NCBI GenBank assembly: GCA_963827235.1
Contig: CAWHAE010000009.1
Location: 1,056,001-1,120,000, forward strand
Length of the DNA: 64,000 nt
Direction of reading: 5' to 3'
From: an uncultured bacterium
Lineage (GTDB): Bacteria; Chloroflexota; UBA5177; JANWHV01
In this document: piece after piece, positions 18,660-40,670 of the stretch
Layout of the letters: every line of letters starts with the position of its first letter
Position numbering within the stretch: the first letter of the stretch is position 1
Position numbers and translations under genes: made by a program
The notes under the pieces: model-generated
What the model saw: the letters and a program-made list of their open reading frames with translations, nothing else
Told to the model about the DNA's origin: nothing
Databases searched by the model: none

Positions 18660-18672
18660 TATTCTTTCTCCT

Positions 18673-19740
18673 CTACACGAGTTCGGCTGCTATCGCGAAA
18701 CGGCCAATCGCGGCATCGAGGCTGGGACGGAGAGCGCGGAGGTGGTCCTCAACGCGCACGATCGGCTCGAGCGAGACCGGCATGCGTTGATACGAGCGGT
18801 CGCGGCAGCGCACGTCGTAGAGCCAGCCCGAGATCCGGTCGATCGCAGAGAAATCCTTGCCCAGCGAGTTTTCGAAGTACGCCTTGCTCACCGCGACGCG
18901 CACCACCCCCCAGCTGGGGGCGATGCCGGACTCGCCGTGCAGCCTGAGAAACCAACTGACGACGGGCTCGAACTCGTAGGGTTGCGGGCGCGTCTGGAGC
19001 ACGATGGCCGGGGTGCGCTCCCCCGAGCGAAGGGCATACACGAGGTTGATGCCGGCCTGGTGCAGGTGGTTGCGAATGCGCAGCAACCGCTTGACGACGG
19101 CCACGACGGGCACGTTCCAATCGCTCAGACCCTGCAAGCGATCCTCGAGAAGACCGTCCACGACCGTAGGCGTCTCCAAAGCGCTGAGCACGAGGCTCTG
19201 CTCCGCTTTGAGCATCTCGTCGCGCGCGCCGTCGTACGTGTGGGTGCGCGCCAACTCGAAGTCGGACGACATGGTACGTGCCTCCAGTTCGAGAAGGCGG
19301 ATGCCAAGCTCGCCGAGGCTATCGCGGATCTGATCGAGGTCGCTGCGCTTGACGCCTTTGCTGATTAAGGCCAGACACGTCTCCAAACGCACGTCCTGTT
19401 CGCGCCGGACAAAGGAAGACCCGACGAGTTCCAGCGCGGCAGCGCCGATGGCGGCCATGAGAAGAGGACGCTGCCTGCCCTGGCCATCCTCGAGCGCCCC
19501 AATGGTCCTCGCCACGATGCTGCCGTCCACAAAGCGACGCGGCGCTAGGGCATCCGGCGGCTGAGAGGGAATCGCGCGCCACCGATCGAGCGGAAGCTCG
19601 TAGTCGCGTTCGACTTCGCCCTCTTCGGGCGAGGCGTCGGTTTCCTCCATCTCATCGCCTGGAAACACGGGAAGAGTCGGGTAGTCGTCGAGGCGACGCG
19701 CTTTATAGCGTGCAAGCACGGCCGCGACTGCATTGGTCAC
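18673..19740 (-). CDS. nurA: NurA-family nuclease
   Basis: RFVDGS and VVDG acidic motifs, C-terminal EPIVRVEDHLR; GTG start after AAGGAGG. Confidence 0.75.
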   Translation of the reverse strand: MTNAVAAVLARYKARRLDDYPTLPVFPGDEMEETDASPEEGEVERDYELPLDRWRAIPSQPPDALAPRRFVDGSIVARTIGALEDGQGRQRPLLMAAIGAAALELVGSSFVRREQDVRLETCLALISKGVKRSDLDQIRDSLGELGIRLLELEARTMSSDFELARTHTYDGARDEMLKAEQSLVLSALETPTVVDGLLEDRLQGLSDWNVPVVAVVKRLLRIRNHLHQAGINLVYALRSGERTPAIVLQTRPQPYEFEPVVSWFLRLHGESGIAPSWGVVRVAVSKAYFENSLGKDFSAIDRISGWLYDVRCRDRSYQRMPVSLEPIVRVEDHLRALRPSLDAAIGRFAIAAELV

Positions 19741-19810
19741 TATTGCCCCTCCTTGTGGAAATACCGTTCCCACTGTACACTTCCAGTGAGTCCATGTCCA
19801 GTGCATTAGG

Positions 19811-19840
19811 TCTTTATAGGGAACTCGTTCGGTATAAAGA
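19811..19840. promoter_or_regulatory. Palindromic operator in the divergent promoter region
   Basis: TCTTTATA-GG-GAAC-TC-GTTC-GG-TATAAAGA. Confidence 0.65.
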
Positions 19841-19856
19841 ACACGCTGGAGCGAGA

Positions 19857-20243
19857 ATGTTCGGGATCGGGGCGCGAATTCGAGAACGGCGAATGGCTCA
19901 AGGGCTCAACCAAAGCCAACTAGCCCGAAAGGCAGGCATCGCAAAGAGCTACCTCAGCAGGCTGGAAACGACCGAGGGCATATCGCCTTCGGTGGCGCTG
20001 GTGCAGCAGATCGCAACGGCCCTGAACGCGAGCTTGGCGGATCTGCTCGGAACAGCCGAGGTGCGACCGGCGAAAGCAGGCTCGATCCCGCCTGCCCTCG
20101 CCCGAGCGAGGGTTCGCTATCGGTTCGCCGACGACGAAGTTGCGCTGCTGCAAGCGATCAGCTACCGAGGCAAGCGACCGGCAACGGAGGACGACTACTT
20201 CTTTCTGCTTCTCGCCATCAAGCACGCTGTAGGCACACCGTGA
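19857..20243 (+). CDS. XRE-family HTH repressor, DdrO-like
   Basis: XRE HTH (SQLARKAGIAKSYLSRLE) plus C-terminal ISYRGKRPATEDDY, resembling Deinococcus DdrO IELRGKRPRDKQDW. Confidence 0.8.
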   Translation: MFGIGARIRERRMAQGLNQSQLARKAGIAKSYLSRLETTEGISPSVALVQQIATALNASLADLLGTAEVRPAKAGSIPPALARARVRYRFADDEVALLQAISYRGKRPATEDDYFFLLLAIKHAVGTP

Positions 20244-20582: not shown

Positions 20583-22472
20583 GTGCGACTCTGCAAACTG
20601 ATCGTCGAAAACCTCCGTTGCTATCGGCACCGAAGCGAGATAACGATCGGCGACCTCACAGCGCTTATCGGGAAGAACGACGTCGGAAAGAGCACTATTC
20701 TCGAAGCGTTGGAACTGTTCTTCAACGGCGAACTGGTCAAGATAGATCAGCAGGATCCACACGTTCACAACCGCGACAAGCCCGTTCGCATCTCGTGCGT
20801 TTTCAGCAACTTTCCCTCTGAGATCGTTCTCGATACCAAAGCCCGCACGTCTCTGGCTGCCGAGCATCTGCTCAACGAGGACGGCCTGCTGGAAGTCGTG
20901 AAAACGTACGACTGTCGCGGGAAAACTATAAAACCAACGGTGGCAGTTTGGGCGTACCATCCGACCTGCAGCGCGGCCGCAGATCTCCTTCAGTTGAAGC
21001 ATGCAGATCTGCTAAAGCGCGCTCGTGACCTGAATGTAGACCTCGACAAGGCAGACCAACGATCCAATGTCGACGTGCGGACAGCGATCCGCGATCACCT
21101 GGATGACAGCCTAGGGTTGAAAGCCACTAGTGTGCCACTCGCATCAGAGGACGGCGCGAAAGTCTGGGACCAGTTGCAGCGAGCGCTGCCCACGTTTGCA
21201 CTGTTCCAATCAGACCGTCCCAGCAAGGACGACGATCCAGAAGTGCAAGATCCGATGAGATTGGCGATCGCTGAGGCAGTCGAATCGGTGCAGAGCGAAC
21301 TCGATGCGATTCGAGAAAAAGTGCGCGAGTGCGCGGTAGGAGTAGCTCGAAGAACGCTCGAGAAGCTGCGAGACCTAGACCCTACGCTTGCCCAGCAACT
21401 GAATCCCGTTTTCAAGGCACAACCGCGCTGGGACGGCTTCAAGCTAGCGCTAAACGGCGACGAAGACATCCCAATAAACAAGCGAGGAAGCGGCGTCCGG
21501 CGGCTCATCCTGCTCAGTTTCTTCCGCGCCCAGGCAGAGCAACGACAACTGAAGAACGACAACCCCAGCATAATCTATGCGATCGAGGAGCCAGAAAGCT
21601 CTCAACATCCGGCAAACCAGCAGCTACTCGTCCGAGCACTCATCGACCTCAGCGAAGGGAACCAGACTCAGGTTCTCCTCACCACGCACGTACCCGGTAT
21701 CGCCGCCATGCTGCCAACGGAAAGCATCCGGTTCGTGCACCGCAACGCCGACGGCCACCCGATTGTAGAAACGGGAAGCGACGAAACCATGAGGCGCGTT
21801 GCGGACGATCTTGGCGTATTGCCAGATAGTCGGGTGCGGGTCCTACTGTACGTGGAAGGGCCCAACGACATTGCCTTCCTGGGCCACATGGCAAGACTGC
21901 TGCGATCGTCCGATCCCAACGTCATCGACATCGATGCAGATCCACGGGTGGCGTTCGTTCCGACAGGCGGCAGCACGCTCGGGCATTGGGTAACCGGCCA
22001 CTATCTGGCCGAGTTGAAGCTCAAGGAGGTTCACATCTTCGATCGAGACGAGGCAACACCGCCCAAGTATCAGAAAGACGTAGACCGAATCAACCAAAGG
22101 GGCGACGGCTCGTGGGCGGGGCTAACGAGCAAGCGCGAAATGGAGAACTACTTGCACCCCGAGGCCATCGCTGCCGTACTCGGCGTCCACATCTCCTTTT
22201 CCGACACGAGCGATGTCCCAGCACTCGTGGCCGAAGCGGTACACGCTGCCAGCGGTTCGGCAGTGACACCGTGGGCGGATCTCGACGACGACAAGAAGAG
22301 CGAGAAGATAGGAAGAGCCAAGAAGCGCCTCAACCGCGACGTTGCACAGGCGATGACCCTAAAGCAACTCGCTGAAATCGACAAGAGCGGCGAGATACGA
22401 GGGTGGTTGACGCACGTGGCATCGGCGCTCGAAATCCAAAATACAGTGTCGGGCACCGTGCCAAAGTCATAA
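20583..22472 (+). CDS. OLD-family ATP-dependent endonuclease (ABC ATPase + TOPRIM)
   Basis: GKNDVGKST, RGSGVRR, IEEPESSQHP, TTH, TOPRIM YVEGPND, FDRD, EMENY; AGGAGG RBS. Confidence 0.9.
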   Translation: MRLCKLIVENLRCYRHRSEITIGDLTALIGKNDVGKSTILEALELFFNGELVKIDQQDPHVHNRDKPVRISCVFSNFPSEIVLDTKARTSLAAEHLLNEDGLLEVVKTYDCRGKTIKPTVAVWAYHPTCSAAADLLQLKHADLLKRARDLNVDLDKADQRSNVDVRTAIRDHLDDSLGLKATSVPLASEDGAKVWDQLQRALPTFALFQSDRPSKDDDPEVQDPMRLAIAEAVESVQSELDAIREKVRECAVGVARRTLEKLRDLDPTLAQQLNPVFKAQPRWDGFKLALNGDEDIPINKRGSGVRRLILLSFFRAQAEQRQLKNDNPSIIYAIEEPESSQHPANQQLLVRALIDLSEGNQTQVLLTTHVPGIAAMLPTESIRFVHRNADGHPIVETGSDETMRRVADDLGVLPDSRVRVLLYVEGPNDIAFLGHMARLLRSSDPNVIDIDADPRVAFVPTGGSTLGHWVTGHYLAELKLKEVHIFDRDEATPPKYQKDVDRINQRGDGSWAGLTSKREMENYLHPEAIAAVLGVHISFSDTSDVPALVAEAVHAASGSAVTPWADLDDDKKSEKIGRAKKRLNRDVAQAMTLKQLAEIDKSGEIRGWLTHVASALEIQNTVSGTVPKS

Positions 22473-22883: not shown

Positions 22884-24191
22884 ATGAGCCAGATACGTCG
22901 TCAACCGCCACTAGACGCGCCGAGTTCGCCCCCACGGGGAATCGCCGCTCGGCAAGACGCGATGGGCTCGGGAAAAGGTATGGCCCCAGCCGTTAAATCC
23001 GCGATAGATGCAGACGACCCCATGCTGTCGACCGAGACTCGTTCGAACGGCGATGGCAGATCCCTTCAGTGGGTCGGCCGGCTAGGGAAAGCGCGGTGGG
23101 CGGATGGCAAGGGACCTAAAGTCATCGACCTTTGCGCCGGCTGCGGCGGTTTGACTCTAGGATTTCGTTCCGTGGGCTTTCAGGTCGTTGCCGCCGCGGA
23201 AATAGACTCAGTGGCTGCAATGGCACACCGAAAGAACTTCCCCAACGTGACGCTCTTCGGGCCCGGTAGCGAATCAACGGGTGAGGGCGACATCACAAAG
23301 CTCACAGGCGGACAACTGCTCGCTGCCACCGGGCTCGAACCCGGCCAATTGGACGTCCTAATCGGCGGCATTCCCTGCCAAGGCTTCTCCGAAATCGGGC
23401 GGCGACGCTGCGAAGACCCTCGCAACGTCCTGTACCAGCACTTCGTGCGGTTGGTCGGAGATCTCCGACCCAAGGCGTTCTTGATCGAGAACGTTCCAGC
23501 GATGACATGGATGCATGGCGGGAAACAGTTCGACGACCTGATCTCGTCTCTCGAGCGACTAGGGTACTCCGCAACGCAATCGCTCGTGAACGCTGCAACG
23601 TATGGCGTCCCGCAGATGCGAACGCGCCTACTCGTGGCAGGCACACTGACTGGACAGAAAATAACGTTCCCCCAGGGTCCGCGTGCGGTAGAACAGTACG
23701 TGACGGTAGACGACGCTATCGGCGATCTTCCGGATGACCTATCCCACCTCCCCTTCCGGGCCGCGCCAGCTCAGCCCTATCGAGCGTCCGCCACGTCCAC
23801 ATACGCGCGGTTGCTTCGCGGCGATGGGACTCTGGTAAATCGACTCACCCCTACCGAACATACGCCCGAGTTGCAAGCACGCTTAAGCGCGCTTCTGCCG
23901 GGAGGGATCGACCCACCGACCCGGCATCGCCGCCTCGATGCCTGCGGCCAAGCATGGACCATACGCGCAGGGGCACGCGCGCGAACGGCGTGCCGACCAA
24001 TCCATCCGACGCAACCACGCGTGATCAACGTGCGCGAGGCCGCCAGACTCCACTCAGTGCCAGACGAATTCTGGTTGCCGGAGGTGAAGTCCGGGGCACA
24101 CATGGTGATCGGGAACAGCGTAGCGCCGCTGATGGCCCATCATCTGGCAGACCTGCTGGCGCAACAAGCGTTCGCAGACGAGATGCCATGA
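22884..24191 (+). CDS. DNA (cytosine-5) methyltransferase (start uncertain)
   Basis: DLCAGCGG, GGIPCQGFS, ENV, GVPQMRTR, REAARL, GNSV motifs. Confidence 0.95.
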   Translation: MSQIRRQPPLDAPSSPPRGIAARQDAMGSGKGMAPAVKSAIDADDPMLSTETRSNGDGRSLQWVGRLGKARWADGKGPKVIDLCAGCGGLTLGFRSVGFQVVAAAEIDSVAAMAHRKNFPNVTLFGPGSESTGEGDITKLTGGQLLAATGLEPGQLDVLIGGIPCQGFSEIGRRRCEDPRNVLYQHFVRLVGDLRPKAFLIENVPAMTWMHGGKQFDDLISSLERLGYSATQSLVNAATYGVPQMRTRLLVAGTLTGQKITFPQGPRAVEQYVTVDDAIGDLPDDLSHLPFRAAPAQPYRASATSTYARLLRGDGTLVNRLTPTEHTPELQARLSALLPGGIDPPTRHRRLDACGQAWTIRAGARARTACRPIHPTQPRVINVREAARLHSVPDEFWLPEVKSGAHMVIGNSVAPLMAHHLADLLAQQAFADEMP

Positions 24192-24892
24192 GCGCTCCCA
24201 ACCACACCGAACCCACCATCGCTCGCGAACCGCACATCAGGGCGGTCGACGAACGATTGCGCGCAGCCTACGGAGTTTCCCGACTCGGGAACAAAGACGA
24301 TCCACTCGACGAGCTGTTCTTCATCATCTTGTCAGGTGCTACGACAGAAGCAACGTATTCCAAGACCTTCGACGCGCTGCGCGAACGCTTCCCCACCTGG
24401 AATGACGTGGCAAACGCGCGACAAGAAGAGATAGAAGTCGTGCTGCAACCGGCAGGTCTCTCGAAGAAGAAGGCAAGCGCTATCAAAGCAGTGTTGGCTG
24501 CGTTGGCAGCCAACAACGGCAGTCTCGACCTCAGCTTCCTCAACAACCAGACCGACGAAGACGCCTACGATTTCCTTCGAACGCTGCCCGGCGTAGGACC
24601 GAAGACGGCGCGCTGCGTGCTCGCGTACAGCACCCTCAACCGCGAGGCCTTTCCCGTCGACGCCCACGTCTCACGCGTGGTGCAACGACTGGGCTGGAGC
24701 GCGCACGACCGACTGACCGATCGAGTGCACGACGCTGTCCAAGCGACCATACCACCCGACGTGCGGCAGAGCCTGCACGTGAACCTCGTAATTCACGGGC
24801 GTACGACCTGCAAGCAGCGCCGACCTCGCTGCAGAACGTGCGTGCTGCGAGACCTCTGCCCGTCCGCAGTCGTGCCAGAGAAAGCCAGCTGA
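24188..24892 (+). CDS. Endonuclease III/HhH-GPD DNA glycosylase with 4Fe-4S cluster
   Basis: HhH LPGVGPKTA, FPVDAHV, C-terminal CKQRRPRCRTCVLRDLC; ATGA overlap with the MTase. Confidence 0.9.
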   Translation: MSAPNHTEPTIAREPHIRAVDERLRAAYGVSRLGNKDDPLDELFFIILSGATTEATYSKTFDALRERFPTWNDVANARQEEIEVVLQPAGLSKKKASAIKAVLAALAANNGSLDLSFLNNQTDEDAYDFLRTLPGVGPKTARCVLAYSTLNREAFPVDAHVSRVVQRLGWSAHDRLTDRVHDAVQATIPPDVRQSLHVNLVIHGRTTCKQRRPRCRTCVLRDLCPSAVVPEKAS

Positions 24893-24894
24893 TC

Positions 24895-26883
24895 ATGCAC
24901 CGAAACGACAACGTCCTCGAAATCCTACAGTTCAGCTACGAAAACGATCGCGCGACCGCCAAGTATGCGGGAGCAGCGCCAGCGTCGGATGCGTTTCTCG
25001 AAGGACTGTACGTCGACACGTTGCTCGATACGGCGCTGGCGAACGACATCCTAAACGACGAGTTCGATCTGGTGCTCATCACCGGCAACCCAGGAGACGG
25101 AAAGACGGCATTCCTGGATAGGCTGTTCCAGAAAGGCCGAACCACCGCCAACAGACCGATCGAAATCCTTCACGACGCAACGCAACCGAGCAAGGACGAC
25201 CGCACGGCGCTGGCTGAACGGGAACTCTCTTACTTTCTGGAGGATCTCACCGACGAACGATGGGATCCCAAGTCCGCCAAGCGTCGCGTGCGGGTGGTCG
25301 GCATCAATGAAGGCATGCTGGCGCGCACGCTCCGAAACCCCAAAGGCAAGTACGCGAAGCACCTGGCGAGCCTCCTGCAAAAGCCGCCGCTCAAGGGGAC
25401 GGGGGACTTTCGCTGCGCGACCGTGAACCTCAACGACAGAGCGTTGGTGCACTTGCCGCTCGGTTTGGGGACCAGCCTGCTCGCCAAACTGTTGCATCGC
25501 GTGACAGATCCCAGGTTGTGGGAGGCGCGAGAGAGCGGTCAGAGTTGCGCCGCGTGTCCGGCCGAAGCCACCTGCCCGTTGCTGGCCAACGCACGAGCTT
25601 TGCGTCTCTCGCGTCCCCGACGACAAATCGAGCTGCTGTTCGCCATCGCACAGTTTCAGCGTCATCGCCACATCTCGATCAGGGATGCGCTCGCAGCGCT
25701 TGCCTACCTGATCGTGGGGCACGAGGACATGTATCGAAGCGGAGAACGAGGCACGGGTATCCCTGTGCATCCCTGCGACTACATCCAACGCGCCGTCGAC
25801 GAAGAGCGCTGGGGACACCTGTACCGTCGGCTCTTCTATCACGCAGGCTTCTTCGACGGCGACGTCTTCGAAGGCTACTTCCCAGAGTTGGGAGAAGCCG
25901 ACGAGTACCAACACCGCCTCTACGGCTTCGCCAACGCCTTCATCGTGGAAGAGCTAAACGTCGCCGACCCAGTGACCGCCTCAAACGCACGACTCGACGC
26001 CATCGAACTGGACGTCGTGACCAACGCCAGCGGATTGCTCGAGAGTCCGCCAACGTGGATGTACGACGTATGCCCGCTCGAACGGGAATTCTTTAGCATC
26101 CTCAGCCAAAGACTGCAAAGGATCGACGAGAAGATCTTAGCCGGCACCGTCGAAGGCTCGGACTACGAAAAAGCACGCGAATCGTCGCTGGCGCTGGCCT
26201 ACGTCGCATCGCGGGCGGCAAAGCGGCGAGCGTTCTTCTTCGACCCGAGTCTTCCCGACCAAGACGCGACGCCCTATGCAAGCTTGGCGCAGTTCTTCGG
26301 GGTGCTGACCTACGTGACCGGCCAGTCCGACCCCACCGCCGAAGACCACTTCGACGAAGCGGTAGAGTCCACCATTCCAGGTGGAGTGATAGCGAGCGAG
26401 CGCCTGCCCGTCCCCGCATCGCCGATCGATAAGTTGGTAGTACGGCTGAGCGACGAGCGCGGCAGCGTAGGCGCTAGCATCGAGTTTCCCGTCGCCGACC
26501 TCAGCGCCGCACTCTTTTCGCCGACGCAAGAAGAGGCCAACATCGACAAGGACCACAACTACCAGCACACGGTAGCGCGACGCCGGTACGTGGAGTATTT
26601 TCCAACGTTCCTGGTGTATCGGCCGTTCAAGGGAGAAACTCAACATCTCATCGTCACGCTCGATCTGTACGAGTTGCTGTTCCGGCTGCGACGAGGCTAC
26701 AGCGAAGCCTTCGGCCATCAGCACCGCGTGCAGCAGCTTCGCATCTTCAAAGCCGCGCTCAGGGCGCGCGGTGCCTCCCGATTGAACTTGTTCGACGCCG
26801 AACAGAACGCGCTGCACGTGGTCGCGCAGGTCCAGCTAGGAGACGCGTCTGGGAAGCGCTCTGCAAGAGTGAGGTTCCAATGA
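24895..26883 (+). CDS. P-loop ATPase resembling the MAD6 C-terminal / DptF ATPase
   Basis: YVDTLLD...LVLITGNPGDGKTAF, GINEG, NLNDR, CxxC-x5-C...NA, HISIRD; similarity recalled, not searched. Confidence 0.7.
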   Translation: MHRNDNVLEILQFSYENDRATAKYAGAAPASDAFLEGLYVDTLLDTALANDILNDEFDLVLITGNPGDGKTAFLDRLFQKGRTTANRPIEILHDATQPSKDDRTALAERELSYFLEDLTDERWDPKSAKRRVRVVGINEGMLARTLRNPKGKYAKHLASLLQKPPLKGTGDFRCATVNLNDRALVHLPLGLGTSLLAKLLHRVTDPRLWEARESGQSCAACPAEATCPLLANARALRLSRPRRQIELLFAIAQFQRHRHISIRDALAALAYLIVGHEDMYRSGERGTGIPVHPCDYIQRAVDEERWGHLYRRLFYHAGFFDGDVFEGYFPELGEADEYQHRLYGFANAFIVEELNVADPVTASNARLDAIELDVVTNASGLLESPPTWMYDVCPLEREFFSILSQRLQRIDEKILAGTVEGSDYEKARESSLALAYVASRAAKRRAFFFDPSLPDQDATPYASLAQFFGVLTYVTGQSDPTAEDHFDEAVESTIPGGVIASERLPVPASPIDKLVVRLSDERGSVGASIEFPVADLSAALFSPTQEEANIDKDHNYQHTVARRRYVEYFPTFLVYRPFKGETQHLIVTLDLYELLFRLRRGYSEAFGHQHRVQQLRIFKAALRARGASRLNLFDAEQNALHVVAQVQLGDASGKRSARVRFQ

Positions 26884-28493
26884 CCCAAACAGCCAAGAGC
26901 GCAGACGACGTCATATGGGAGAAGATCTACCACAAGAGAGTCGACCGTCTGTTCCTGCCGCTCGGCATTCGCCAGAATAGGATCGAGGACATCTTTACCG
27001 ACTTTCTGGCCTCGCTTGTAGCCTACGCGCACGGGCGCGGGGCTGTCGGAACCAGCGACGACAAGGATCGGTTCGGCATCCTCGAGGCCGATCTGCGGCA
27101 AGGGGTGCGTCACGTGTCCATGCCCGAAGACGACTTCAAGCGATCGCTGGTATTCCGGTGGCTGCGCAGCGAATTGGTCCGCAACGAACGGTCGTCGAAC
27201 AGCGGACGGACGAGAAACGCCGGCCATTCCATCGTGCCGCTACACGTCGCGGTCGCAGAACGCTTCGGGCGGCCAGAAGGGGGCATTCCGAATTACGGCG
27301 AATGTCTGTGCGAAATGCTGACCGCAGGCCGTCCTGCAGGGCGAGAGGACGCCTTGCTCAAGAGCCTATGGGACTTCTTCAAGGAGAATGGGGGCGATCC
27401 GCTCGCGACGATCCTGGAGTTAGCCTTATCCTCCAACGAATCAACCGAGGAGACCCAACGGCCCTGGGCCTTGCCGGCGCGGTCCCTAGTCCGCTGTCCC
27501 CAACACGCACGCGCGTTCCAGCGAGACGTAGAACACGTGCTCCGGTTCGTGAATCACGTGTCGCGAAGCACCATGCTCGTGTGGCTCTACTCGCTGTTCG
27601 CCTTTCACCTCGCAACGTACTTCCTTCGCATGGCGAAGGCGGCGCAACGCTGTGCAACAAGCCTGGCCAAAACCATGGAGAGCGGGATCGTCGAGTACCA
27701 AGCGTGCCAGCTATGCGGCTTGACGCTCGCTAACGGTCGCGCAACCGGCTCGTGCTCCAACGAGGTGCAGATCGTCCTTGGCGAACGCAATCTCGATCAC
27801 GCGCGACTGATGAAACGATATCCGTACTACACAAGCCAACTGCCAATCGCCAAGTCGTACTTCGAGCAGCTCTACGACGATCGATCGCTGGCGGCCATGG
27901 ATGAAGCCGATGCGCTCGCGAGCACGTTCGAGCGAATTGCCGCAGAAGTCATCGCCAAGCCGAACGAGGTCAAGGGTTGGTTCGAGATGCTCGCTGGCGA
28001 ATACCCCGTGCACACCAGCACGTCCCCTCGTGGCGCGCAGGCGCGAAGTGCCTGGCGACTAGCGGAAGCCGACAAGCGCCAAGCACTCGAACTGCTGCAG
28101 CGCGGCCAAGCCACCGCGTTCGAAACCGTAGCCTTCCACCTAAATTTCAACGACATGTCGCGGGCTTCCAACAGCATCCAAGAATGGCAGTTCTATCAAA
28201 CGCTGGCACGCGATCCAGTGTACGGATTTGCCAGCGGGCGAGGCGAAGAACTCAACTACAAGCTCTCGGATGGACTGCTAGCAGCACTCGTGCACGCCCA
28301 CATCGTAGAGGTAAACGGCGAAGCCACGGTGCGAACGTTCGAGGAATCGCTGGAAAGCCGAGGCCTTAGGATCGACGATGGCTATCGCAGCGCGCTCATG
28401 GAAGCGCTCGTCAACGCGGGCACGATGGAAGCGATTGCCGACGCAGGCGATGCAAAGCGCCTGTCGGCCCTTTACGAATGGGACAAAGCGTGA
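26880..28493 (+). CDS. Hypothetical protein, MAD7/DptG-like middle subunit
   Basis: Coupled on both sides; C-terminal winged-helix-like end (YKLSDGLLAALV...ADAGDA); position between the ATPase and the giant gene. Confidence 0.55.
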   Translation: MTQTAKSADDVIWEKIYHKRVDRLFLPLGIRQNRIEDIFTDFLASLVAYAHGRGAVGTSDDKDRFGILEADLRQGVRHVSMPEDDFKRSLVFRWLRSELVRNERSSNSGRTRNAGHSIVPLHVAVAERFGRPEGGIPNYGECLCEMLTAGRPAGREDALLKSLWDFFKENGGDPLATILELALSSNESTEETQRPWALPARSLVRCPQHARAFQRDVEHVLRFVNHVSRSTMLVWLYSLFAFHLATYFLRMAKAAQRCATSLAKTMESGIVEYQACQLCGLTLANGRATGSCSNEVQIVLGERNLDHARLMKRYPYYTSQLPIAKSYFEQLYDDRSLAAMDEADALASTFERIAAEVIAKPNEVKGWFEMLAGEYPVHTSTSPRGAQARSAWRLAEADKRQALELLQRGQATAFETVAFHLNFNDMSRASNSIQEWQFYQTLARDPVYGFASGRGEELNYKLSDGLLAALVHAHIVEVNGEATVRTFEESLESRGLRIDDGYRSALMEALVNAGTMEAIADAGDAKRLSALYEWDKA

Positions 28494-31400
28494 TGACGCC
28501 CTTACCCAACATCCCGACGACGGCGAGCGCGGCGTTGGCGCGAGCGGCGTACGAATACTTCGCCGGACGCAAGGACGTGCGCACCAAACGCCTGCTCGTC
28601 CACCATTACCCGCGACGGATCCTGGAAAGCACGGCGGAGGCCTTCTACGGTCTAGCGGAGAAACGAGACGGCGGCCTTTTCATAGCAGACAAGCGAGTGA
28701 CGGTCGGATTGATACAGCCTCCCAACGAAACCGACTCGTTGAAGGCCTTTAGCGGGTGGCAATACGGCTGCTCGCCGGACTGGCCGGTGCGGGCTCGAGA
28801 CGTAGGTGGATTCCTGCTGTTGCTGTGCCCCCCGGATTGGTACGAATCGCTGCACGAATCGATCCGATCGAATTCTTTCATGGCCTTCGACCAGGGACAA
28901 AGCGCCGGAGCGCCCTCGGCCGTGGCAACCGCGATGATCGCTGCAGCTGGCTTGGACGAGCCAGAGGAAAATCTCCTCAAATCCATCGTCCGGGAACTAC
29001 TCGCGCGCGCGCAGCGACGGCGTCACGACGTGGGAATCGTCGACGTGCTCGAAGCCCTCGAACGTTACCTCGGCGAAGATGCCGTACCTAGCCCAGCCTC
29101 CCTGCGAGCGCTTGGGCTCGTGCCGGACGCCCGGTTGACCGCGGATCTCGATGAGCGTGAAGTGCGCAGGCTCGTTCGAGACAATCTGGACTACCAAGCG
29201 ACGCTAAGCGCGGAAATGGCGCGCTTACCCTCCAAATACCTACAGGAACGATTTCCCACGGAGGCCGAACGTCCAATAGCAGAGCGCTTGCGCGCGCACG
29301 TCGCGCAGTTCGACTACGACCTGCGCGTGGACGATCTCACGTGGCGCACCACCTGGCCACCCGACCTCACCCTCGGCCAATTGCTCGGCAAGACGGGAAC
29401 AGGGCCTCTGGGTCCGCGACCTAAAGCCACGGTGCGCGCGCTAACAGTCGATTCGGTGGCGCGATGGGAAGACGCCGAGGTCGTTGAAGCGAACGGAATC
29501 GACCTAACGTGGAAGGTTGCGGGGCCAGAAGAAGCTCGATCGGGCGAGGTAACGGCGTTCGTAGACGGCATTGAGATCGAAGACGCCACAGCCCAACTCA
29601 GCGACCAGTACGTGCAGATACCAAACATACCTCCCGGCCGGCACACGGTGGAGCTGCGTGCGTCCGACGACGACGAGCTGGAGGTACTCGGGCAAACGCG
29701 TTGCGAGGTATTCGTGGTCAAAGACGGCATCGTGCCGTTCTCCATACGGGGGCAACGGGCGATAGGCGATCGATTCGAGGTTCTTCCCGGAAGAGACGTC
29801 CAACTCGTATGGCGAAGCCCAGCGGACGACGGCATCGCGCAATGGGTGGTCAAGATCGAGTCGATCTCCGGCACCACCGAGGAAGTACGACTGAGCCGAA
29901 CCACCGAACAATATCGGGTCGACGGCGGCATTACCGAACCCACCGATTTCGAACTGAGCGGCGTCGACGTCGACGGACGGCGCGTATGCGGGGCGCTCCT
30001 TCAAGTGTCACCGGTCGCAGACGATGAGAGAAAGGCGATTAAGGCAGCCTCGGTTGCCCAAGGCCTCGTGGCCGCCGCCCGAAACCTGCGTGCGAAACGA
30101 GAGGTATGGGCTAGCGTGCGGACGAAGCCGCTGGACATCAAGATAGAAGAGGTGAGCGAAGTCGGCTACACCATACGATTCGTCGACGGCGACCAGGTGG
30201 TGTGGGAGCAGCGATGCAACGCGCCCAACTCCGAACTGCTCGACGGTATGGAACGCGGTTTCACTGCAAAGCCCGACCGGCCGTGGCTCCTCGCTGCACC
30301 GGCACGATGGACCACCCAACCCTGGCCATGCCACCCAAGCAAGCAACCAGAGATTGCGACGTGGGAAGGACAACTGCGCGCCAGCGCGCCAGGTCTCGAG
30401 GATTACCTCAGCGCCCGGCGGACGCTCTTCGAGAGGATGGGCGAACGGTCAAACGACCAGATGCCACCGATCAACACCCTGCCGCTCGCGGACTTCGAAA
30501 CTGAAATCGTAGCGTACGCAACGGCCTACCGCCGGGCGCTCGAAGCGCTGGTCAAAGATGGAAACGCATTCCAATCGTTCCACGCGCTGCTCTCGCTAGT
30601 GGACACGGTGGCTTTCGTCTCAAACGTATGGCGCGACCCCTACGCGGTGGCCGGAGACCGCGCCAACGTGGTGGCGCTCGCCGTCGCTCCAACGCACCCC
30701 CTACGACTGCTTTGGCTGCTACAACTGGAGTTAGCCGTGCGAGCGGTCGTTGCGGGAGGCGGCGGAGGAGACTTCAATCCGGACTCCTTCAGCGGCCTAT
30801 CCGGAATGAACTACCCTCCCTACCTCGTGGACTTCGACCGGCACTTCTACCGCAACGTCGGCGTGTCGCCCACCTACGGCTGGGCGCTCTACCTTCCCGA
30901 GGCGCAGACGGAGAGCGATACGTTCTTCTCTCCCGTCCTGCAGAAAGCGCTAGAGTTGCGCACCACGGGCGAAAACGTAGCCGTGAGCGCCGAACAAATA
31001 CGAAACGCGCTCGCGTACTACCACGAGGCATTTCCGTTTCGGGACGTCATTCGGTTCCACTACATAGGCGCTGGCTCCGGCGAGCGGATCGTCGAAGCGC
31101 TGACAGGTTGGGAAGACGGACCGCGTCGCGCAACCGGCGCGCGGAAAGCCGTAAGCCGCACGACCGCAGAGAGGATGCGGTTCGTCGTAAACTTGCTAGA
31201 CGTATACGAAGCGGAACGGCCGGCCGGTACCGGAAGAGCCTTTGAAGAATACGCTTCCCAAAGCTCGGACGAGGATCCACTGCTCGAGAACGCGCTGTTT
31301 GCCGTGCAAACCGTCGAGCGCAGCAGATTCGAACGGGTGGATGCGGAACTCCCGCAAATCCCGCGGCACCACATCGTCTTCGGCAGCGATTTCTTCGCCA

Positions 31401-34135
31401 CCCGCGGAGACACCCTCGCGGTCGAAGGCCACGCCTATCCTCTCGCCGCCTGGGGTCTGCGGAACCTGCCAACGAAAGCGATCGACGGGGGAGCTGACCA
31501 GCGCCTCTTCATCTCGGCCGTGGTGCCGAAACCCGCAGAAGCGCAGCAAGTTGACGGCGAACGACGGGAGCCAGCAACGAAACAAGCTCCAAGCGCAACG
31601 ACGGCCAGTCCACAGGACCGCCTTCGCGCGCTAGCAAACGCCGAAGACGAAATCCACAGGCTATCGTACGCCTTCCAAGTGATGTCCAGCATTTCATCCG
31701 AGCATCGAGTCTACCACCTAGACGTGGCTCGCATGCAGGTGATCGAACTGGACAGTCGGGCAGCAGGAGCGATCGACCGCATGCACCGCATCGCCGAGTG
31801 GGTCTACATCGTAGACGCCCACATCGATGTCGAGCTGTTCGATCGACCAGGGCCCGAGCACTACATTCTGGACTATCGTCCGACGATTGGCGCGACGGGA
31901 CCGCGAGCAGCGCGTCATAACTACGTAATCACCACGAGAGACAACACGCAGATCGTCTCCGTAGTCGAACGCTTCTTGAGCAATCAATACGCTGCCGTCT
32001 TTAGCGGCCAGGACGGGTGCGTAGCGCGCACGGCAGCGGAGCGACTCCTGAAAACCCTCAACCGAGTCTCCGGAAGGTCGATCCTGACAGCTTCTGGGGC
32101 GGTCGACCGCCGTGAAGGGGGTAGTCGGCATCGCGCTTGCCCGAGCCCTTTACCAACGACTGGGACTGTTGCAGCCCGTCCGCACGGGACGCTACGTACA
32201 GGCAGTCCGACTCCTCATCCCCGTAGACGATATTTCGATCTCTGGTGGGCAGATCGAGTCGGACTAGACGGTCAGGGTCGCGACGCCAACAAACAGCACG
32301 CCGATCTCCTCGACGCCGACATCGGAATCGTCGACGGCGTGGCGACCATCAAGTTGCAACTCATCGAGGTGAAGAACCTCTACGGAAGTTATTCGAGTGG
32401 CGGCTTGAGCGAGCCAGCCGAGCAAGTGCGCGCGATGCACCGAACGCTCGAAACCGTACTGTTCGGCCCCGACGGAAGCGGTCGGCGAGACGAGCCAATC
32501 AAGACACACGAGTTCGTTCAGATCCTGGATTTCTACCTACGCCGAAGCTTTATGCAAACCTTGGGTCAAGATTCTGAAGCCCTGAGCGACGCACGACTCT
32601 TCCGCATCGCGCTTCAAGAGGCAGCTGTGACCGGCAACCTGAACGTCGCGCTCGGCTATGGGTCGCCGCAGAGCGACTCGCCATCCGCTGGTGCGATCTT
32701 GCACTTCACGTCCGAGCCAGGCGTCCCGGCGTTTTCGCTCGATCGCAGCGCGTACTTCACGGTAGAGGGATCCCCTCCGGTGCGCTACCTGCACCTGGGC
32801 AGCTCAGACGTGGCGGCGTTGCTCTGCGAAACGAAGGATCTGGCCGAAGACGATCTGCGCGCAGCCATCAACGGCGTCCCGGCAAACGAGCGCGGGAACG
32901 AACCCGAAGGCTCGCCAAACGGCGAAGAACCACAGGCGTCCGGCGGGGCTGCCAAGCCTGTAGCGTCAACGGTAGGATTGTTCGCGGATCGGATTGCTGA
33001 AAGACCGACGAGCACCATCGAACAAACGGACCTCCAAAGCGACCGAACGACGCGGCACGAAGAACAACAATCCGCGAGCACCCACTCCGTCGACACAGCA
33101 GAACGGGCTGCACAAATGCTCGAAGCGATAAAAGAGCGCACTCCCTACGTCGAGCAGGCGACAGCCGCGTTCGCAGGCTTCATCGGCAACGAGGAAGCGA
33201 AACAACTCCTCATACCGATCCTCGTGCAAGGCCTTCGAGAAACAACGAGAGCGCTGTCGATGAGCATCCTATTCGACGGGCCGCCGAGCACGGGCAAGAC
33301 GGAGCTAGCACGGCGCATAGCCGGCGCGTTGAAGCTTCCGTTCCTCCAGACATCTGGAGCAGCGCTCGGCAGCATAGACGAACTCCTAACCTCGATGAGA
33401 AACCAGGCAGAGGCTAAAGGAAGCCGCCTACAAACGACCGGACACGTAGGCGGCAGGCCGGTACACAGGTTCCCGCCGATGTGCGTGTTCATCGACGAGG
33501 CGCACGAACTGAAGAACGTGGTCCAGCAAGCACTGCTGACGTTTCTGGAGCCGAAGGATCGCCGAGGTGGTGGGCCGAAAACGAAATACGTTGCCGACGT
33601 CAGCGAAGTCACGTTCGTCTTCGCCACCACGGACTTCGGCAGCCTGGATCGTGCGCTTCGAACGCGAATGCAAAGGATTACCCTAGCGGCCTACACCCAA
33701 GAAGAGGTCGAGCGCATCGTCATAGGGACGCATCCGAATTGGCCTGCGGCAGTCTACCACCGACTGGTGGTAGCCGGCAGAAGGGTTCCGCGCATCGCGC
33801 TCGAACGAGCGCAAACTCTACAGCGCCACCTGGAAACCTATCCGGATCAGAGCCCGGAGGACGCTTTGGATCGCCTCTTCTCGCTGTGGAAGATGGACAA
33901 GCAAGGAATCTCCGAAGAAGACCGAAACCTGCTCCAAGCCCTAGCGAAAGAAGGCCGTCCGCTGGGCATCAACTACCTCGCCAACCAACTCGGCTCGAGC
34001 GAAGCCGACATTACGGATCTGATAGAACCGTACCTCACAGGCCTTGGATTCGTGGAGCGCACCGGAAGCGGACGCGCGATCACGGCGGCCGGACAGCGGT
34101 ATCTAGCGAAAATGCGGCAGGACAAGCAACCATAG
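28493..34135 (+). CDS. Giant MAD8/DptH-like protein with PD-(D/E)xK nuclease and C-terminal RuvB-like AAA+ motor
   Basis: TGATG overlap. PTHPLRLLW, NRVSGR, ADLL...LIEVK; C-terminal GPPSTGKT, FIDEAHEL, PRIA, EPYL..G..ERTGSGRAIT. A local compensated frameshift lies at ~32087-32230. Confidence 0.75.
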   Translation: MTPLPNIPTTASAALARAAYEYFAGRKDVRTKRLLVHHYPRRILESTAEAFYGLAEKRDGGLFIADKRVTVGLIQPPNETDSLKAFSGWQYGCSPDWPVRARDVGGFLLLLCPPDWYESLHESIRSNSFMAFDQGQSAGAPSAVATAMIAAAGLDEPEENLLKSIVRELLARAQRRRHDVGIVDVLEALERYLGEDAVPSPASLRALGLVPDARLTADLDEREVRRLVRDNLDYQATLSAEMARLPSKYLQERFPTEAERPIAERLRAHVAQFDYDLRVDDLTWRTTWPPDLTLGQLLGKTGTGPLGPRPKATVRALTVDSVARWEDAEVVEANGIDLTWKVAGPEEARSGEVTAFVDGIEIEDATAQLSDQYVQIPNIPPGRHTVELRASDDDELEVLGQTRCEVFVVKDGIVPFSIRGQRAIGDRFEVLPGRDVQLVWRSPADDGIAQWVVKIESISGTTEEVRLSRTTEQYRVDGGITEPTDFELSGVDVDGRRVCGALLQVSPVADDERKAIKAASVAQGLVAAARNLRAKREVWASVRTKPLDIKIEEVSEVGYTIRFVDGDQVVWEQRCNAPNSELLDGMERGFTAKPDRPWLLAAPARWTTQPWPCHPSKQPEIATWEGQLRASAPGLEDYLSARRTLFERMGERSNDQMPPINTLPLADFETEIVAYATAYRRALEALVKDGNAFQSFHALLSLVDTVAFVSNVWRDPYAVAGDRANVVALAVAPTHPLRLLWLLQLELAVRAVVAGGGGGDFNPDSFSGLSGMNYPPYLVDFDRHFYRNVGVSPTYGWALYLPEAQTESDTFFSPVLQKALELRTTGENVAVSAEQIRNALAYYHEAFPFRDVIRFHYIGAGSGERIVEALTGWEDGPRRATGARKAVSRTTAERMRFVVNLLDVYEAERPAGTGRAFEEYASQSSDEDPLLENALFAVQTVERSRFERVDAELPQIPRHHIVFGSDFFATRGDTLAVEGHAYPLAAWGLRNLPTKAIDGGADQRLFISAVVPKPAEAQQVDGERREPATKQAPSATTASPQDRLRALANAEDEIHRLSYAFQVMSSISSEHRVYHLDVARMQVIELDSRAAGAIDRMHRIAEWVYIVDAHIDVELFDRPGPEHYILDYRPTIGATGPRAARHNYVITTRDNTQIVSVVERFLSNQYAAVFSGQDGCVARTAAERLLKTLNRVSGRSILTASGAVDRREGGSRHRACPSPLPTTGTVAARPHGTLRTGSPTPHPRRRYFDLWWADRVGLDGQGRDANKQHADLLDADIGIVDGVATIKLQLIEVKNLYGSYSSGGLSEPAEQVRAMHRTLETVLFGPDGSGRRDEPIKTHEFVQILDFYLRRSFMQTLGQDSEALSDARLFRIALQEAAVTGNLNVALGYGSPQSDSPSAGAILHFTSEPGVPAFSLDRSAYFTVEGSPPVRYLHLGSSDVAALLCETKDLAEDDLRAAINGVPANERGNEPEGSPNGEEPQASGGAAKPVASTVGLFADRIAERPTSTIEQTDLQSDRTTRHEEQQSASTHSVDTAERAAQMLEAIKERTPYVEQATAAFAGFIGNEEAKQLLIPILVQGLRETTRALSMSILFDGPPSTGKTELARRIAGALKLPFLQTSGAALGSIDELLTSMRNQAEAKGSRLQTTGHVGGRPVHRFPPMCVFIDEAHELKNVVQQALLTFLEPKDRRGGGPKTKYVADVSEVTFVFATTDFGSLDRALRTRMQRITLAAYTQEEVERIVIGTHPNWPAAVYHRLVVAGRRVPRIALERAQTLQRHLETYPDQSPEDALDRLFSLWKMDKQGISEEDRNLLQALAKEGRPLGINYLANQLGSSEADITDLIEPYLTGLGFVERTGSGRAITAAGQRYLAKMRQDKQP

Positions 34136-34217: not shown

Positions 34218-34934
34218 ATGGACCCGCGCCACTCACCTTTAGAACCACTCAACGTTTGCATTTACTGTGGAGGCATTCCTGGCACACACGAGCACGTGCC
34301 CTCTGAGATTTTCCTGGACGAGCCGTACCCAGCCAACTTGATTACTCTTCCAGCGTGCGAGCCCTGCAACAACGGATTCTCCAAGGACGAGCTATACCTG
34401 GCATGCGTGCTCGAATGCGTCATCTGCGGAAGCACAGATCCATCCAAGGTTCGGCGTCCGAAGGTAAGAGAATCACTCGCTAACCAGCCACTGCTCTGCA
34501 AGTGCATCGAAAGATCGAGGATAGACAGCAACGACACTCCCAGATGGAGCGTCCAGCCGAAACGAGTAGCGCGGATCGTCGAAAAGCTAGCACGAGGCCA
34601 CGTAGCCGACGAGCTGTCTTGCACGGAGCTACATACAATACGACAAGATCCTATCAGGCTCAGATTTTCCCCTATTTCTATACTCAAGGATCCTTCCACG
34701 TTTTCGACTGCGACGCGGCATCGTAATCGGCCCACGCTTTGGCCGGAAGTAGGCACGAAAGCGCTAGAGCGTGCTGTAAGCGGGAGAGCCGATCACTTCA
34801 ACGTAGTAAACGAATGGGTGATCGTGCAGGCAGGCAGGTACCGGTACCTAGTAACCAAAACCGACAACCTGCACGTCCTCATGATGCTTAGCGAATACCT
34901 AGCGTGCGAAGTCGTCTGGCATGCAGAACAGTAG
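34218..34934 (+). CDS. HNH endonuclease-like protein
   Basis: CIYCG...EHVP...PACEPCNN zinc/HNH motif. Confidence 0.75.
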   Translation: MDPRHSPLEPLNVCIYCGGIPGTHEHVPSEIFLDEPYPANLITLPACEPCNNGFSKDELYLACVLECVICGSTDPSKVRRPKVRESLANQPLLCKCIERSRIDSNDTPRWSVQPKRVARIVEKLARGHVADELSCTELHTIRQDPIRLRFSPISILKDPSTFSTATRHRNRPTLWPEVGTKALERAVSGRADHFNVVNEWVIVQAGRYRYLVTKTDNLHVLMMLSEYLACEVVWHAEQ

Positions 34935-37810: not shown

Positions 37811-38320
37811 ATGAGGGGTAGGGTCTTCTCGGTGCTGGCGGTGGTCATCGCCGTGCTGCTCTTCGTGCCGCGGGCGCTGGGGGCGGCGGGCAATGCGGTC
37901 TACCAGCAGACGTCGCCCAGCGCGGATGGGGAGGCGCAGCACAACGCCAATCGCACGGGACTGCAGGGCATGCAGCCGCCGGGGTTTGCCCATGCGCGGA
38001 GCATCGCGCCGGTGGATGGCGAGGAGCGGCCGAGCTTGAACGGGACGCCGACGATCAGCGACACGTACAACCCGCGCGACCAGGGAACGGACTGGCCGGC
38101 GGATGCCTTCACGGCGCTGGTGGTCGGGCATCAGAGTCCGGAGCCGATCTCGCGGCCGGCGCTGCACAGCTATGCCGGCGACGGGAACATGGAGGCGGCC
38201 AGCGTGTTCCCGCCCTTCAGCCGGCAGGAGGACCGCTTCGACCTGGGCGCCTATACGGGCGCGGTGGGTCCGGCGGGCGGCAGCACGCCCGAGGCGCATC
38301 CCGAGATCACGGCGCCCTGA
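37811..38320 (+). CDS. Phage-module hypothetical protein with N-terminal signal/TM
   Basis: GGAGGGAG RBS, hydrophobic N-terminus. Confidence 0.55.
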   Translation: MRGRVFSVLAVVIAVLLFVPRALGAAGNAVYQQTSPSADGEAQHNANRTGLQGMQPPGFAHARSIAPVDGEERPSLNGTPTISDTYNPRDQGTDWPADAFTALVVGHQSPEPISRPALHSYAGDGNMEAASVFPPFSRQEDRFDLGAYTGAVGPAGGSTPEAHPEITAP

Positions 38321-38404
38321 CCACCGCACCCTGACATACCTTTTGTGCGGCGGTAGTTCTGGGGGCCGCGTTGGGACGGGACGGCGCGGCCCCACCATTG
38401 AGGA

Positions 38405-38453
38405 GCCTGCGGTTGCGATCGCATGGCAGCGCATGGGGGACTGCGGTCCCGGG
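38405..38453 (+). repeat. Twin-hairpin intergenic element, copy 2 (compensatory changes)
   Basis: TGCGGT-TGCG-ATCGCA ... GGGAC-TGCG-GTCCC. Confidence 0.85.
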
Positions 38454-38472
38454 GTGAGGAGGGAGGTGCCGG

Positions 38473-40326: not shown

Positions 40327-40328
40327 CG

Positions 40329-40377
40329 GCCTGCGACTGCGGTCGCATGGAAGCAGGTGGGGGACTGCGGTCCCAGG
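40329..40377 (+). repeat. Twin-hairpin intergenic element, copy 3
   Basis: TGCGAC-TGCG-GTCGCA ... GGGAC-TGCG-GTCCC right after TAG 40326. Confidence 0.85.
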
Positions 40378-40411
40378 TGGACGCGGGACGGGTGAGCGGG
40401 GAGGTGAGGGG

Positions 40412-40669
40412 ATGCAGTCGGGGCGCGGGATACCTGGCGGGGCATCGCGGGCGACGCACCGGTCGAGGCAGTCACTCTACGTGCTGCGCGACGAGCTCGA
40501 CTGCAGCGGGTGCGAGTTCGGGCGGCTGAACCGGGAGCGCATCACCTGGATGGCGGAGGCGGTGGAGAAGGTGGACAAGAAGCTCAACTACGTGCTGGCG
40601 GCGGCGGGTCTGCAGCTCTTCGGCTTCCTGCTGACCGTGGTCGGCGTGCTCGTCTACCGGGTGCATTGA
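40412..40669 (+). CDS. Small coiled-coil + TM protein (holin/hemolysin-like)
   Basis: VEKVDKKLNY followed by a C-terminal TM helix. Confidence 0.5.
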   Translation: MQSGRGIPGGASRATHRSRQSLYVLRDELDCSGCEFGRLNRERITWMAEAVEKVDKKLNYVLAAAGLQLFGFLLTVVGVLVYRVH

Positions 40670-40670
40670 C

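Follow-up and report, generated by a model that had tools for sequence, protein, structure and literature searches.

Positions 22884-34135 of a 64,000-bp stretch of contig CAWHAE010000009.1 from an uncultured Chloroflexota bacterium (the whole stretch is referred to as the window) carry five plus-strand genes that probably constitute one horizontally acquired defense operon of the MADS/DndFGH type with 5-methylcytosine (5mC) as the self mark. MADS is the methylation-associated defense system, mad1-mad8 (Maestri et al. 2024, as cited in PMC13662399). The gene products are a C5 cytosine DNA methyltransferase, an endonuclease III (EndoIII)-type DNA glycosylase/lyase, and a triad of larger proteins designated F′ (P0003), G′ (P0004), and H′ (P0005), the last of which ends in a RuvB-like AAA+ module (Table 1). 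The operon is a variant within the MADS/DndFGH superfamily and not a categorically new system. According to the open reading frame (ORF) listing and the translations, neighboring genes overlap or are separated by 2 bp. The methyltransferase and glycosylase genes share an ATGA overlap at 24188; the glycosylase stop codon (24890-24892) is followed by “tc” and the ATG of F′ at 24895; F′ and G′ share an ATGA overlap at 26880, and G′ and H′ are joined by TGATG at 28491-28495. All four junction sequences were exactly as claimed in a preliminary description of this DNA. The products agreed in kind as well, with a C5 methyltransferase, a glycosylase, a P-loop ATPase-type protein (662 aa, given there as 660 aa), a 537-aa protein, and an 1880-aa giant. 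A scan for promoters and terminators gave a signal no higher than the shuffled expectation.

Comparison of the three large proteins with the MAD families by blastp, NCBIfam, and hhalign revealed homology. F′ possesses a Walker A motif (GNPGDGKT), an Asn-type Walker B motif (GINEG), and an ND motif (NLND), and a P-loop together with an Asn-type Walker B and an ND motif has been described for DndF in the available text of PMC10853773. Pfam yielded weak P-loop matches only. SspF (3.5e-12) and DndF (1.6e-7) were matched in PADLOC, over the N-terminal 240 residues only, and TIGR03238 gave an E value of 0.025 and 13.5 bits at a cut-off of 50. By local blastp, F′ aligned with the non-kinase C-terminal half of eight MAD6 proteins (best E value, 2e-20), and there only to MAD6 residues 783-1031. 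No Pkinase or other kinase family was matched in Pfam, PADLOC, or NCBIfam, so that the proposed absence of a kinase from the triad was corroborated. G′ matched the NCBIfam model antiphage_MADS7 (NF047733) at 2.1e-14, with residues 38-484 on positions 26-462 of the 529-position profile; there was no Pfam match and no PADLOC family even at E ≤ 10.

The giant H′ is homologous to MAD8 over residues 4-1429, as indicated by hhalign of alignment A1, which holds the 7 sequences of its family, with alignment A2 of ten MAD8s; this comparison gave a probability of 100%, an E value of 3.3e-42, and 1192 aligned columns. This match ends before the C-terminal motor. Local blastp aligned residues 583-1369 with MAD8s at a best E value of 3e-12. 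A relation between MADS and the Dpt/Dnd triads had also been assumed beforehand. The MADS locus G111 codes for a MAD6 of 1326 aa (NF047741, 4e-149), one half of which is a kinase and the other similar to SspF (3e-32), a MAD7 of 570 aa, and a MAD8 of 1716 aa (DndH 2e-33, mad8 7.6e-23) with a HerA/CedD-type tail. Because these triad proteins match the SspF, SspG, and DndH models, MAD6-8 and the Dnd/Ssp FGH proteins form one superfamily, and the assumed relation holds. The window's own F′, G′, and H′ are homologous to MAD6-8 and, by way of these, to the Dnd/Ssp FGH proteins; G′ and H′ themselves match no Dnd/Ssp model. In the PADLOC and NCBIfam scans, the five genes did not all match an existing defense model.

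An AlphaFold model of H′ residues 6-1205 had a mean predicted local distance difference test (pLDDT) value of 77.2 and showed an alpha/beta N-terminal part, all-beta sandwiches at model residues 311-510, and mixed domains thereafter. When this 1200-residue model was compared with the PDB by Foldseek, FN3 arrays were the top matches (E value 5e-8) and filled the list, which confirms predicted FN3-like sandwiches and singles out no other DndH domain, the described TRD and methylase-like domains included; the DndH architecture includes two all-beta domains according to the available text of PMC10853773. Downstream of the modeled part, the D and the E-x-K of H′ are shared by all 13 sequences of alignment A5, and D...ExK is invariant or nearly so across alignment A4, which includes MAD8s. 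Because of this motif and the homology to MAD8/DndH, a putative PD-(D/E)xK nuclease domain is assigned to H′. As a separate observation, N-x-P-P-[YF] is conserved in the H′ family and in MAD8s, as NYPPY in H′ (residues 778-782, positions 30809-30823) and as NVPPF in the MAD8 consensus. This motif resembles methylase motif IV with one extra residue, and an origin from motif IV was considered; it is located only about 40 residues past the conserved PTHPLR loop, and no claim is made.

The C terminus of H′ is a complete three-domain RuvB module in place of HerA/FtsK, in agreement with the preliminary description. RuvB_N (3e-9), AAA (6.6e-14), and RuvB_C (1.6e-15), located at residues 1564-1876, were the sole Pfam matches on H′, and its PADLOC matches were AAA+ models only (IetA, DolB, and TRIP13). 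The 330-residue tail matched the RuvB structure 1in4 over chain residues 25-325 with an E value of 1.8e-26 and the NCBIfam RuvB family with 1.2e-33. It reached 116 bits with NF000868, which has a cut-off of 282, and is a fused module and not a stand-alone RuvB of about 330 aa. A sequence search of the PDB with the H′ family profile found only RuvB and other AAA+ proteins. Walker motifs A and B are both found in the module, and the linker preceding it is poorly conserved. Its identity is 27% to the RuvB that the genome encodes elsewhere and about 27-31% to cellular RuvBs; with identities to RuvBs of only 27-30%, the module is no recent copy of the host gene.

Giants of this kind are scarce. Among 5.8 billion proteins, no more than six non-self relatives of the H′ core were found by a word-index search, four of them RuvB-tailed (47-53% identity), one with an FtsK_SpoIIIE tail (P0011), and one truncated (P0012). 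When 1.84 billion cluster representatives were searched exhaustively with phmmer, 61 proteins were obtained at E ≤ 0.001, of which 11 were at E ≤ 1e-30 and 7 had a RuvB tail. For the 58 new representatives, the tails were typed by comparison with four references in local blastp, which assigned 6 to RuvB, 10 to the HerA type of G111, and 2 to the FtsK type of locus G017; the remaining 40 matched none of the four references. The RuvB modules of P0252-P0258 are 41-49% identical to that of the window, the cores only 28-32%, which suggests that the motor may be under stronger constraint or the sensing core may be evolving faster. A FastTree phylogeny with a midpoint root only was calculated from 26 core sequences, comprising the close and sister groups in full (15 members), 7 representatives selected from the other 46 because their tail was recognized, and 4 from genomes. 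All RuvB-tailed giants were in one clade of 15 rows with a support of 97, and the FtsK-tailed P0011 and the truncated P0012 were nested in the window's subclade with a support of 100. RuvB-tailed giants, as judged by sequence, are a rare but real clade. The simplest reading of the tree is that RuvB would have been captured once at the base of this clade and later swapped for FtsK, this direction of the swap being inferred. The available text of PMC10853773 reports repeated capture of HerA/FtsK domains by DndH in six clades and does not mention RuvB; the RuvB capture extends this series. Outside of these proteins, a plasmid collection gave matches of H′ to ruvB genes only and none of G′, and a metagenome contig scan gave two AAA+ matches only (L001 and L002), neither of which was related to the core.

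The methyltransferase is a C5 enzyme rather than an N6 methylase, as had been stated, with E values of 2.5e-57 for PF00145 and 8.2e-91 for PADLOC MTase_II and with motifs I (DLCAGCGG), IV (GIPCQGFS, with PCQ), and VI (ENVP); N6_Mtase had no match among the window ORFs scanned. The addition of a glycosylase to the triad was likewise verified by a helix-hairpin-helix (HhH)-GPD gene inside the operon (PF00730, 4.7e-13) that retains the catalytic Lys (GVGPKT), the Asp (VDAHV), and the C-x6-C-x2-C-x5-C cluster. The product is probably bifunctional, judging from the EndoIII-type Lys. In NCBIfam, a DR2438-type glycosylase (3.6e-39) and nth (8.4e-28) were found, both under their cut-offs, with 97.3 bits for TIGR01083 (nth) at a cut-off of 211.7; the PADLOC matches were “Type II nicking endonuclease” (9.7e-9) and OGG (2.8e-8). 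Compared with ordinary Nth proteins from across the phylum, the enzyme has an identity of about 40%, and the other listed Nth matches of the phylum sample were about 33-44% identical. A second, ordinary Nth is encoded elsewhere on the same contig.

Evaluation of the connection between these two genes and the triad needs to consider the neighborhoods of related giants, and contigs of equal size in base pairs were used for this purpose. One 19502-bp size class from JGI, with one contig for each protein, contained giant P0010, Nth P0013 (65% identity and the best non-self match out of 1461), and methyltransferase P0134 (53% identity). Contigs of 11670 bp, which share their source and number two for each protein, contained giant P0008 and Nth P0022 (59% identity), and 13152 bp was the size for the FtsK-tailed giant P0011 and methyltransferase P0137 (51% identity). 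These matches suggest that, in three metagenomic contigs, the giant is accompanied by the methylase and/or the glycosylase.

The MAD7 model, run on 401 genomes of the window's phylum, matched 35, of which 18 were above the cut-off. A first reference-genome scan found no close relatives of H′. In a second scan, for which a broader profile covering the entire RuvB clade was run on the GTDB reference genomes, 80 MAD8-like loci with only 22-32% identity came up. Features were counted in these loci, with flanks of up to 10 kb on each side, by tblastn at E ≤ 1e-6, so that divergent or more distant genes can be missed and a zero does not prove absence. None of the 80 had a RuvB tail and none an Nth; a C5 methylase was found in one (L112), a MAD6 kinase half in 66, a G065-type N6 methylase in 24, and an F core without kinase match in 5. 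The gene order of MADS-like systems is evidently fluid. In L070 (CBETWD010000016.1, positions 1790-13828), a kinase-less MADS-like locus, an N6 methylase (659 aa) and a 484-aa gene are located between G (535 aa) and H (1706 aa), with an F of 604 aa.

The combination of an EndoIII-type enzyme with a C5 methylase was also found at an unrelated Dnd/Ssp-type triad in G017, a genome of another family. At this locus, an XRE gene precedes a triad whose members resemble DndF (2.6e-7), DndG/mad7 (9e-6 and 9e-5), and, in a giant with an FtsK tail, SspH/DndH (1e-52 and 1.9e-18), and the triad is convergent with a 651-aa HhH-GPD::C5-methyltransferase fusion that is followed by an integrase gene. In this single ORF (L063, G017:C14:186000-205900, positions 14886-16841, minus strand), the EndoIII-type glycosylase is N-terminal to the C5 methyltransferase. 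In G051, an Nth with 58% identity is adjacent to a C5 methylase and a GHKL ATPase, without a triad, and Nth P0033 and methyltransferase P0141 are both on contigs of 2784 bp. Taken together, the sequences suggest that the glycosylase follows the C5 methylase, be it adjacent, overlapping, or fused, and that FGH-type triads have taken up this pair at least two times. It is more likely that the glycosylase is the partner of the methylase than a part of the restriction machinery.

With MADS, the operon shares a triad of MAD6-core, MAD7, and MAD8 type in identical gene order, a giant core homologous from the N terminus to the nuclease region, a link to methylation, and nearby OLD-family and XRE genes. 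It differs from MADS in a C5 enzyme instead of an N6-methyladenine (m6A)-forming N6 methylase with a specificity subunit, in the absence of the Ser/Thr kinase half of MAD6, in a RuvB instead of a HerA/FtsK tail on the giant, in the added EndoIII glycosylase, and in a single fused OLD protein instead of MAD3 plus MAD4 (OLD-like ATPase plus Toprim), and all window scores were far under the NCBIfam MADS cut-offs. The DndFGH/DptFGH/SspFGH systems, as far as the available text of PMC10853773 describes them, also combine a P-loop F protein with an Asn-type Walker B, a DNA-binding G protein, and a giant H protein that contains beta-sandwiches and a nuclease and ends in a ring translocase. Their motor is of the HerA/FtsK type in that text, compared to the AAA+ RuvB here, and their phosphorothioate modification genes have no counterpart at the window locus. 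The preliminary description had excluded dnd genes altogether. DndC (TIGR03183), which alone was searched for among them, had no match in the window's own genome, which is 95.9% complete. Like RuvB, the module has all three domains with Walker A and B; unlike RuvB, it is the C-terminal part of an 1880-aa putative nuclease, and the locus contains no RuvA or RuvC. Within the full-text literature covered, which did not include the original MADS paper and its supplements, neither a RuvB-tailed MAD8/DndH nor a triad linked to a C5 methylase and EndoIII was described, the latter yielding co-mentions in two reviews only. The earlier claim of an undescribed composition stands to this extent, but the operon belongs inside the MADS/DndFGH superfamily, and MADS subtypes could overlap with it.

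A number of results weigh against an operon that restricts by reading 5mC. G′ scored 53.5 bits with NF047733 at a cut-off of 410 and is a homologue, not an equivalog. The H′ core matched no DndH, SspH, or mad8 in PADLOC at E ≤ 10 and no MADS8 in NCBIfam, and with the model of the nuclease region (pLDDT 56.5), Foldseek found nothing below an E value of 0.06, which leaves the fold unconfirmed. Co-occurrence was inferred from equal contig sizes and not from contig sequences. No Nth was found for the 13152-bp size among 120 listed of 1461 matches, no methyltransferase for the 11670-bp size among 120 listed of 477, and three of the six homologue contigs (7653, 8619, and 8470 bp) had no match at all; these three are shorter than giant, G′, and F′ together (about 9.1 kb). 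Mig.MthI, an HhH enzyme comparable to the window glycosylase, is monofunctional and has no EndoIII catalytic Lys, and the window glycosylase has this Lys. The window's copy of H′ may itself be impaired or inactive. Finally, DndFGH has been argued to act often uncoupled from the modification module (Rakesh et al., available text of PMC10853773).

This last point leads to an unlikely alternative, two systems side by side, in which a solitary 5mC methylase with a deamination-repair partner would be followed by a stand-alone F′G′H′ that does not read 5mC but responds to another trigger, for example nucleotides or proteins of phages. The source just cited concludes that DndFGH frequently occurs apart from modification genes and may be stand-alone; G051 contains the Nth subfamily and a C5 methyltransferase without a triad, and close homologues of both enzymes are present on many other contigs. 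On the other hand, all five genes of the window are translationally coupled, the methylase and/or the glycosylase are on contigs of the same size as three homologues of the giant, a second triad lineage (G017) is adjacent to an Nth::methyltransferase fusion, and MADS as the closest relative depends on methylation (available text of PMC13662399).

The possible impairment of H′ results from a deviation that was not mentioned in the preliminary description. Residues 1204-1251 (positions 32087-32230) depart from all six homologues while the rest of the A1 row agrees, and the +1 frame of 32040-32330 reproduces the family consensus over exactly this stretch. This indicates that one base has been added near 32087-32095 and one lost near 32225-32231, a compensated pair with which the ORF stays open. 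Neither indel site is in a long homopolymer. The scrambled residues, about 48, are directly upstream of the D...ExK motif in a region that is conserved even in MAD8s, and their pLDDT in the model is below 50. Either the indels are a pair of assembly errors or the nuclease domain of the window copy is damaged. In the second case, the copy may be a decaying or disarmed relic, in which the frameshift has ruined N-terminal elements of the nuclease, perhaps easing self-toxicity, and the window locus would no longer restrict although the family does. The agreement of the alternative frame with the consensus, the deviation from six of six homologues, and the low pLDDT speak for such a relic. The restored frame, the still translated D...ExK motif and RuvB module, the absence of any other visible disruption in the 11-kb operon, and the possible origin of both indels in the assembly speak against it. 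A relic is therefore a serious alternative but not the expected one.

For a functional defense operon, the mode of action can be outlined by analogy with the methylation-dependent MADS, which needs its MAD7/MAD8 module (available text of PMC13662399), and with DndFGH. The C5 methyltransferase would methylate a host motif as the self mark. F′ as a nucleotide-binding P-loop sensor, G′ as the DNA binder, and H′ may assemble on DNA and read the absence of this mark, H′ would cut or nick the unmarked DNA with its putative PD-(D/E)xK domain, and the C-terminal ring would pump double-stranded DNA. In the RuvB-tailed clade, a RuvB-type AAA+ translocase would have displaced the non-homologous HerA/FtsK pump. 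The glycosylase most likely removes T from T:G mismatches left by the deamination of 5mC or processes related lesions. Vsr repairs T:G mismatches that result from 5mC deamination. Similar to Vsr and Mig.MthI, the glycosylase is a small repair enzyme encoded beside or fused to a C5 methylase, and Mig.MthI, likewise of the HhH superfamily, acts against 5mC deamination by excising T from T/G mismatches (available text of PMC2714593); the window enzyme differs in its EndoIII-type Lys, and a link to a MADS-type triad does not belong to those systems.

Alternatively, the glycosylase might be an antiviral effector or a sensor of modified phage bases and serve as a second line of defense, a role that seems improbable. 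Glycosylases of the HhH superfamily have repeatedly been found to act in defense (10.1101/2025.10.29.685425, in its available part), hypermodified DNA is recognized in END nucleases by domains that resemble EndoIII (available text of PMC12191111), and the PADLOC OGG model matched at the E value given above. The fusion to or location beside C5 methylases in three contexts fits a methylase-linked housekeeping function better, and the enzyme has a canonical EndoIII active site with a 4Fe-4S cluster and its identity of about 40% to ordinary Nth proteins. Still more doubtful is a distinct 5mC-based subtype of MADS/DndFGH in which the glycosylase would be integral and a ring translocase of any fold an interchangeable engine. 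The glycosylase might then, for instance, produce a nick or an abasic site that lets the tethered RuvB ring load onto unmarked DNA.

Table 1. Features of the operon and its surroundings in the window (all on the plus strand)
Feature	Position	Strand	Size	Family or basis
XRE-family helix-turn-helix (HTH) regulator ORF, possible controller, membership uncertain	19710..20243	+		Cro/C1-type HTH
OLD-family/AriA-like ABC ATPase with C-terminal extension	20583..22472	+	629 aa	Pfam AAA_15, 9.1e-70
C5 cytosine DNA methyltransferase	22884..24191	+	435 aa	PF00145
EndoIII-type HhH-GPD 4Fe-4S DNA glycosylase/lyase	24188..24892	+	234 aa	PF00730
F′, kinase-less MAD6/DndF/SspF-type P-loop protein	24895..26883	+	662 aa	
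G′, MAD7-like, presumed DNA-binding subunit	26880..28493	+	537 aa	
H′, MAD8/DndH-like giant with C-terminal RuvB-like AAA+ module	28493..34135	+	1880 aa	
Tandem beta-sandwich (FN3-like) domains of H′	29423..30022	+		AlphaFold model, Foldseek
About 48 codons of H′ out of frame compared to the family, compensated indel pair	32087..32230	+		Alignment
Putative PD-(D/E)xK core motifs of H′ (HAD ... EVK), intact	32297..32377	+		Invariant D, E-x-K
RuvB-like AAA+ module of H′: large, small, and winged-helix domains	33155..34132	+		Pfam, NCBIfam, PDB
Downstream ORF, family unassigned	34218..34934	+	238 aa	

The operon is located inside a low-GC stretch, with a GC content of 0.58-0.65 over positions 1-38000 and of about 0.70 beyond. 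The MAD7 model had no match in four of four genomes of the same genus (83-92% complete). The step in GC content, from about 0.60 to about 0.71, is near 38 kb and is accompanied by a strong positive GC skew over 38000-48000, and the low-GC island extends past the window start. A tRNA scan of the window found no tRNA gene and hence none that marks an island border. The island also contains OLD-, SbcC-, and FtsK-type defense-like genes, and this surrounding bears on a further alternative, an operon for DNA repair or the maintenance of a mobile element instead of immunity, with RuvB acting in recombination and Nth in base excision repair. Both RuvB and EndoIII belong to the classical repair families, but the module here is part of a giant with a MAD8-type core, and a housekeeping RuvB (27% identical) and a second, ordinary Nth exist elsewhere in the genome. 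Together with the defense-like neighborhood, this makes a repair operon highly improbable.

Two genes upstream may be connected to the defense operon, and the preliminary description had suggested that XRE and OLD may parallel mad1 and mad3/4. The XRE ORF matched capH (2.3e-13) in PADLOC, HTH_VI (2.2e-11), and a restriction-modification control protein (3.8e-6). The OLD/AriA-like gene is separated from the methyltransferase gene by 411 nt, and its PADLOC matches were AriA (2.1e-57), Old (5.5e-26), GajA (3e-22), and mad3 (4.4e-16). Its product spans the PARIS AriA model over practically the entire length (1-372 of 373), and about 255 extra residues match the C-terminal region of GajA/OLD. The gene could represent a fused single-gene system of the AriA-AriB type instead of a part of the operon; its matches would fit either a separate neighboring defense gene or an analogue of MAD3/4. 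For the 238-aa ORF downstream of H′, no Pfam or PADLOC match was found, and an Atlas search gave unnamed clusters only.

Two other gene groups of the same island were recorded. Divergent from the XRE gene is a minus-strand operon of four genes at 12603-19806. It codes for proteins of 377 and 590 aa without a Pfam family, the latter with weak mad8/HerA matches (2e-5), a 400-aa SbcD-like calcineurin-like phosphoesterase, and a 1034-aa SbcC/Rad50-like ATPase (PADLOC mad3 4e-25, LmuB 2e-24). From its gene content, it looks like an uncharacterized candidate for SbcCD-type defense. At 4277-8766 on the plus strand, a gene for a 350-aa GNAT-domain protein overlaps one for a 1170-aa FtsK/SpoIIIE-family protein (PF01580, 1.1e-27), and the FtsK domain of the latter is similar to that at the end of the giant in G017 (tblastn, 6e-11). 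This pair may be another element of the “HerA/FtsK capture” type.

Restriction by the MADS and DndFGH machines is still poorly understood, and the operon provides several points of access. The HerA/FtsK pump is replaceable by a non-homologous AAA+ ring of the RuvB type, which was apparently swapped back to FtsK once, and it can therefore be argued that the conserved need is a ring-shaped translocase for double-stranded DNA. Since the triad is coupled here to 5mC and not to m6A or phosphorothioate, the self mark looks interchangeable, too. The recurrence of an EndoIII-type enzyme with a C5 methylase in two triad lineages would point to either a Vsr-like safeguard or an extra effector. The compact, kinase-less version with five genes would be a simpler biochemical object than the eight-gene MADS.

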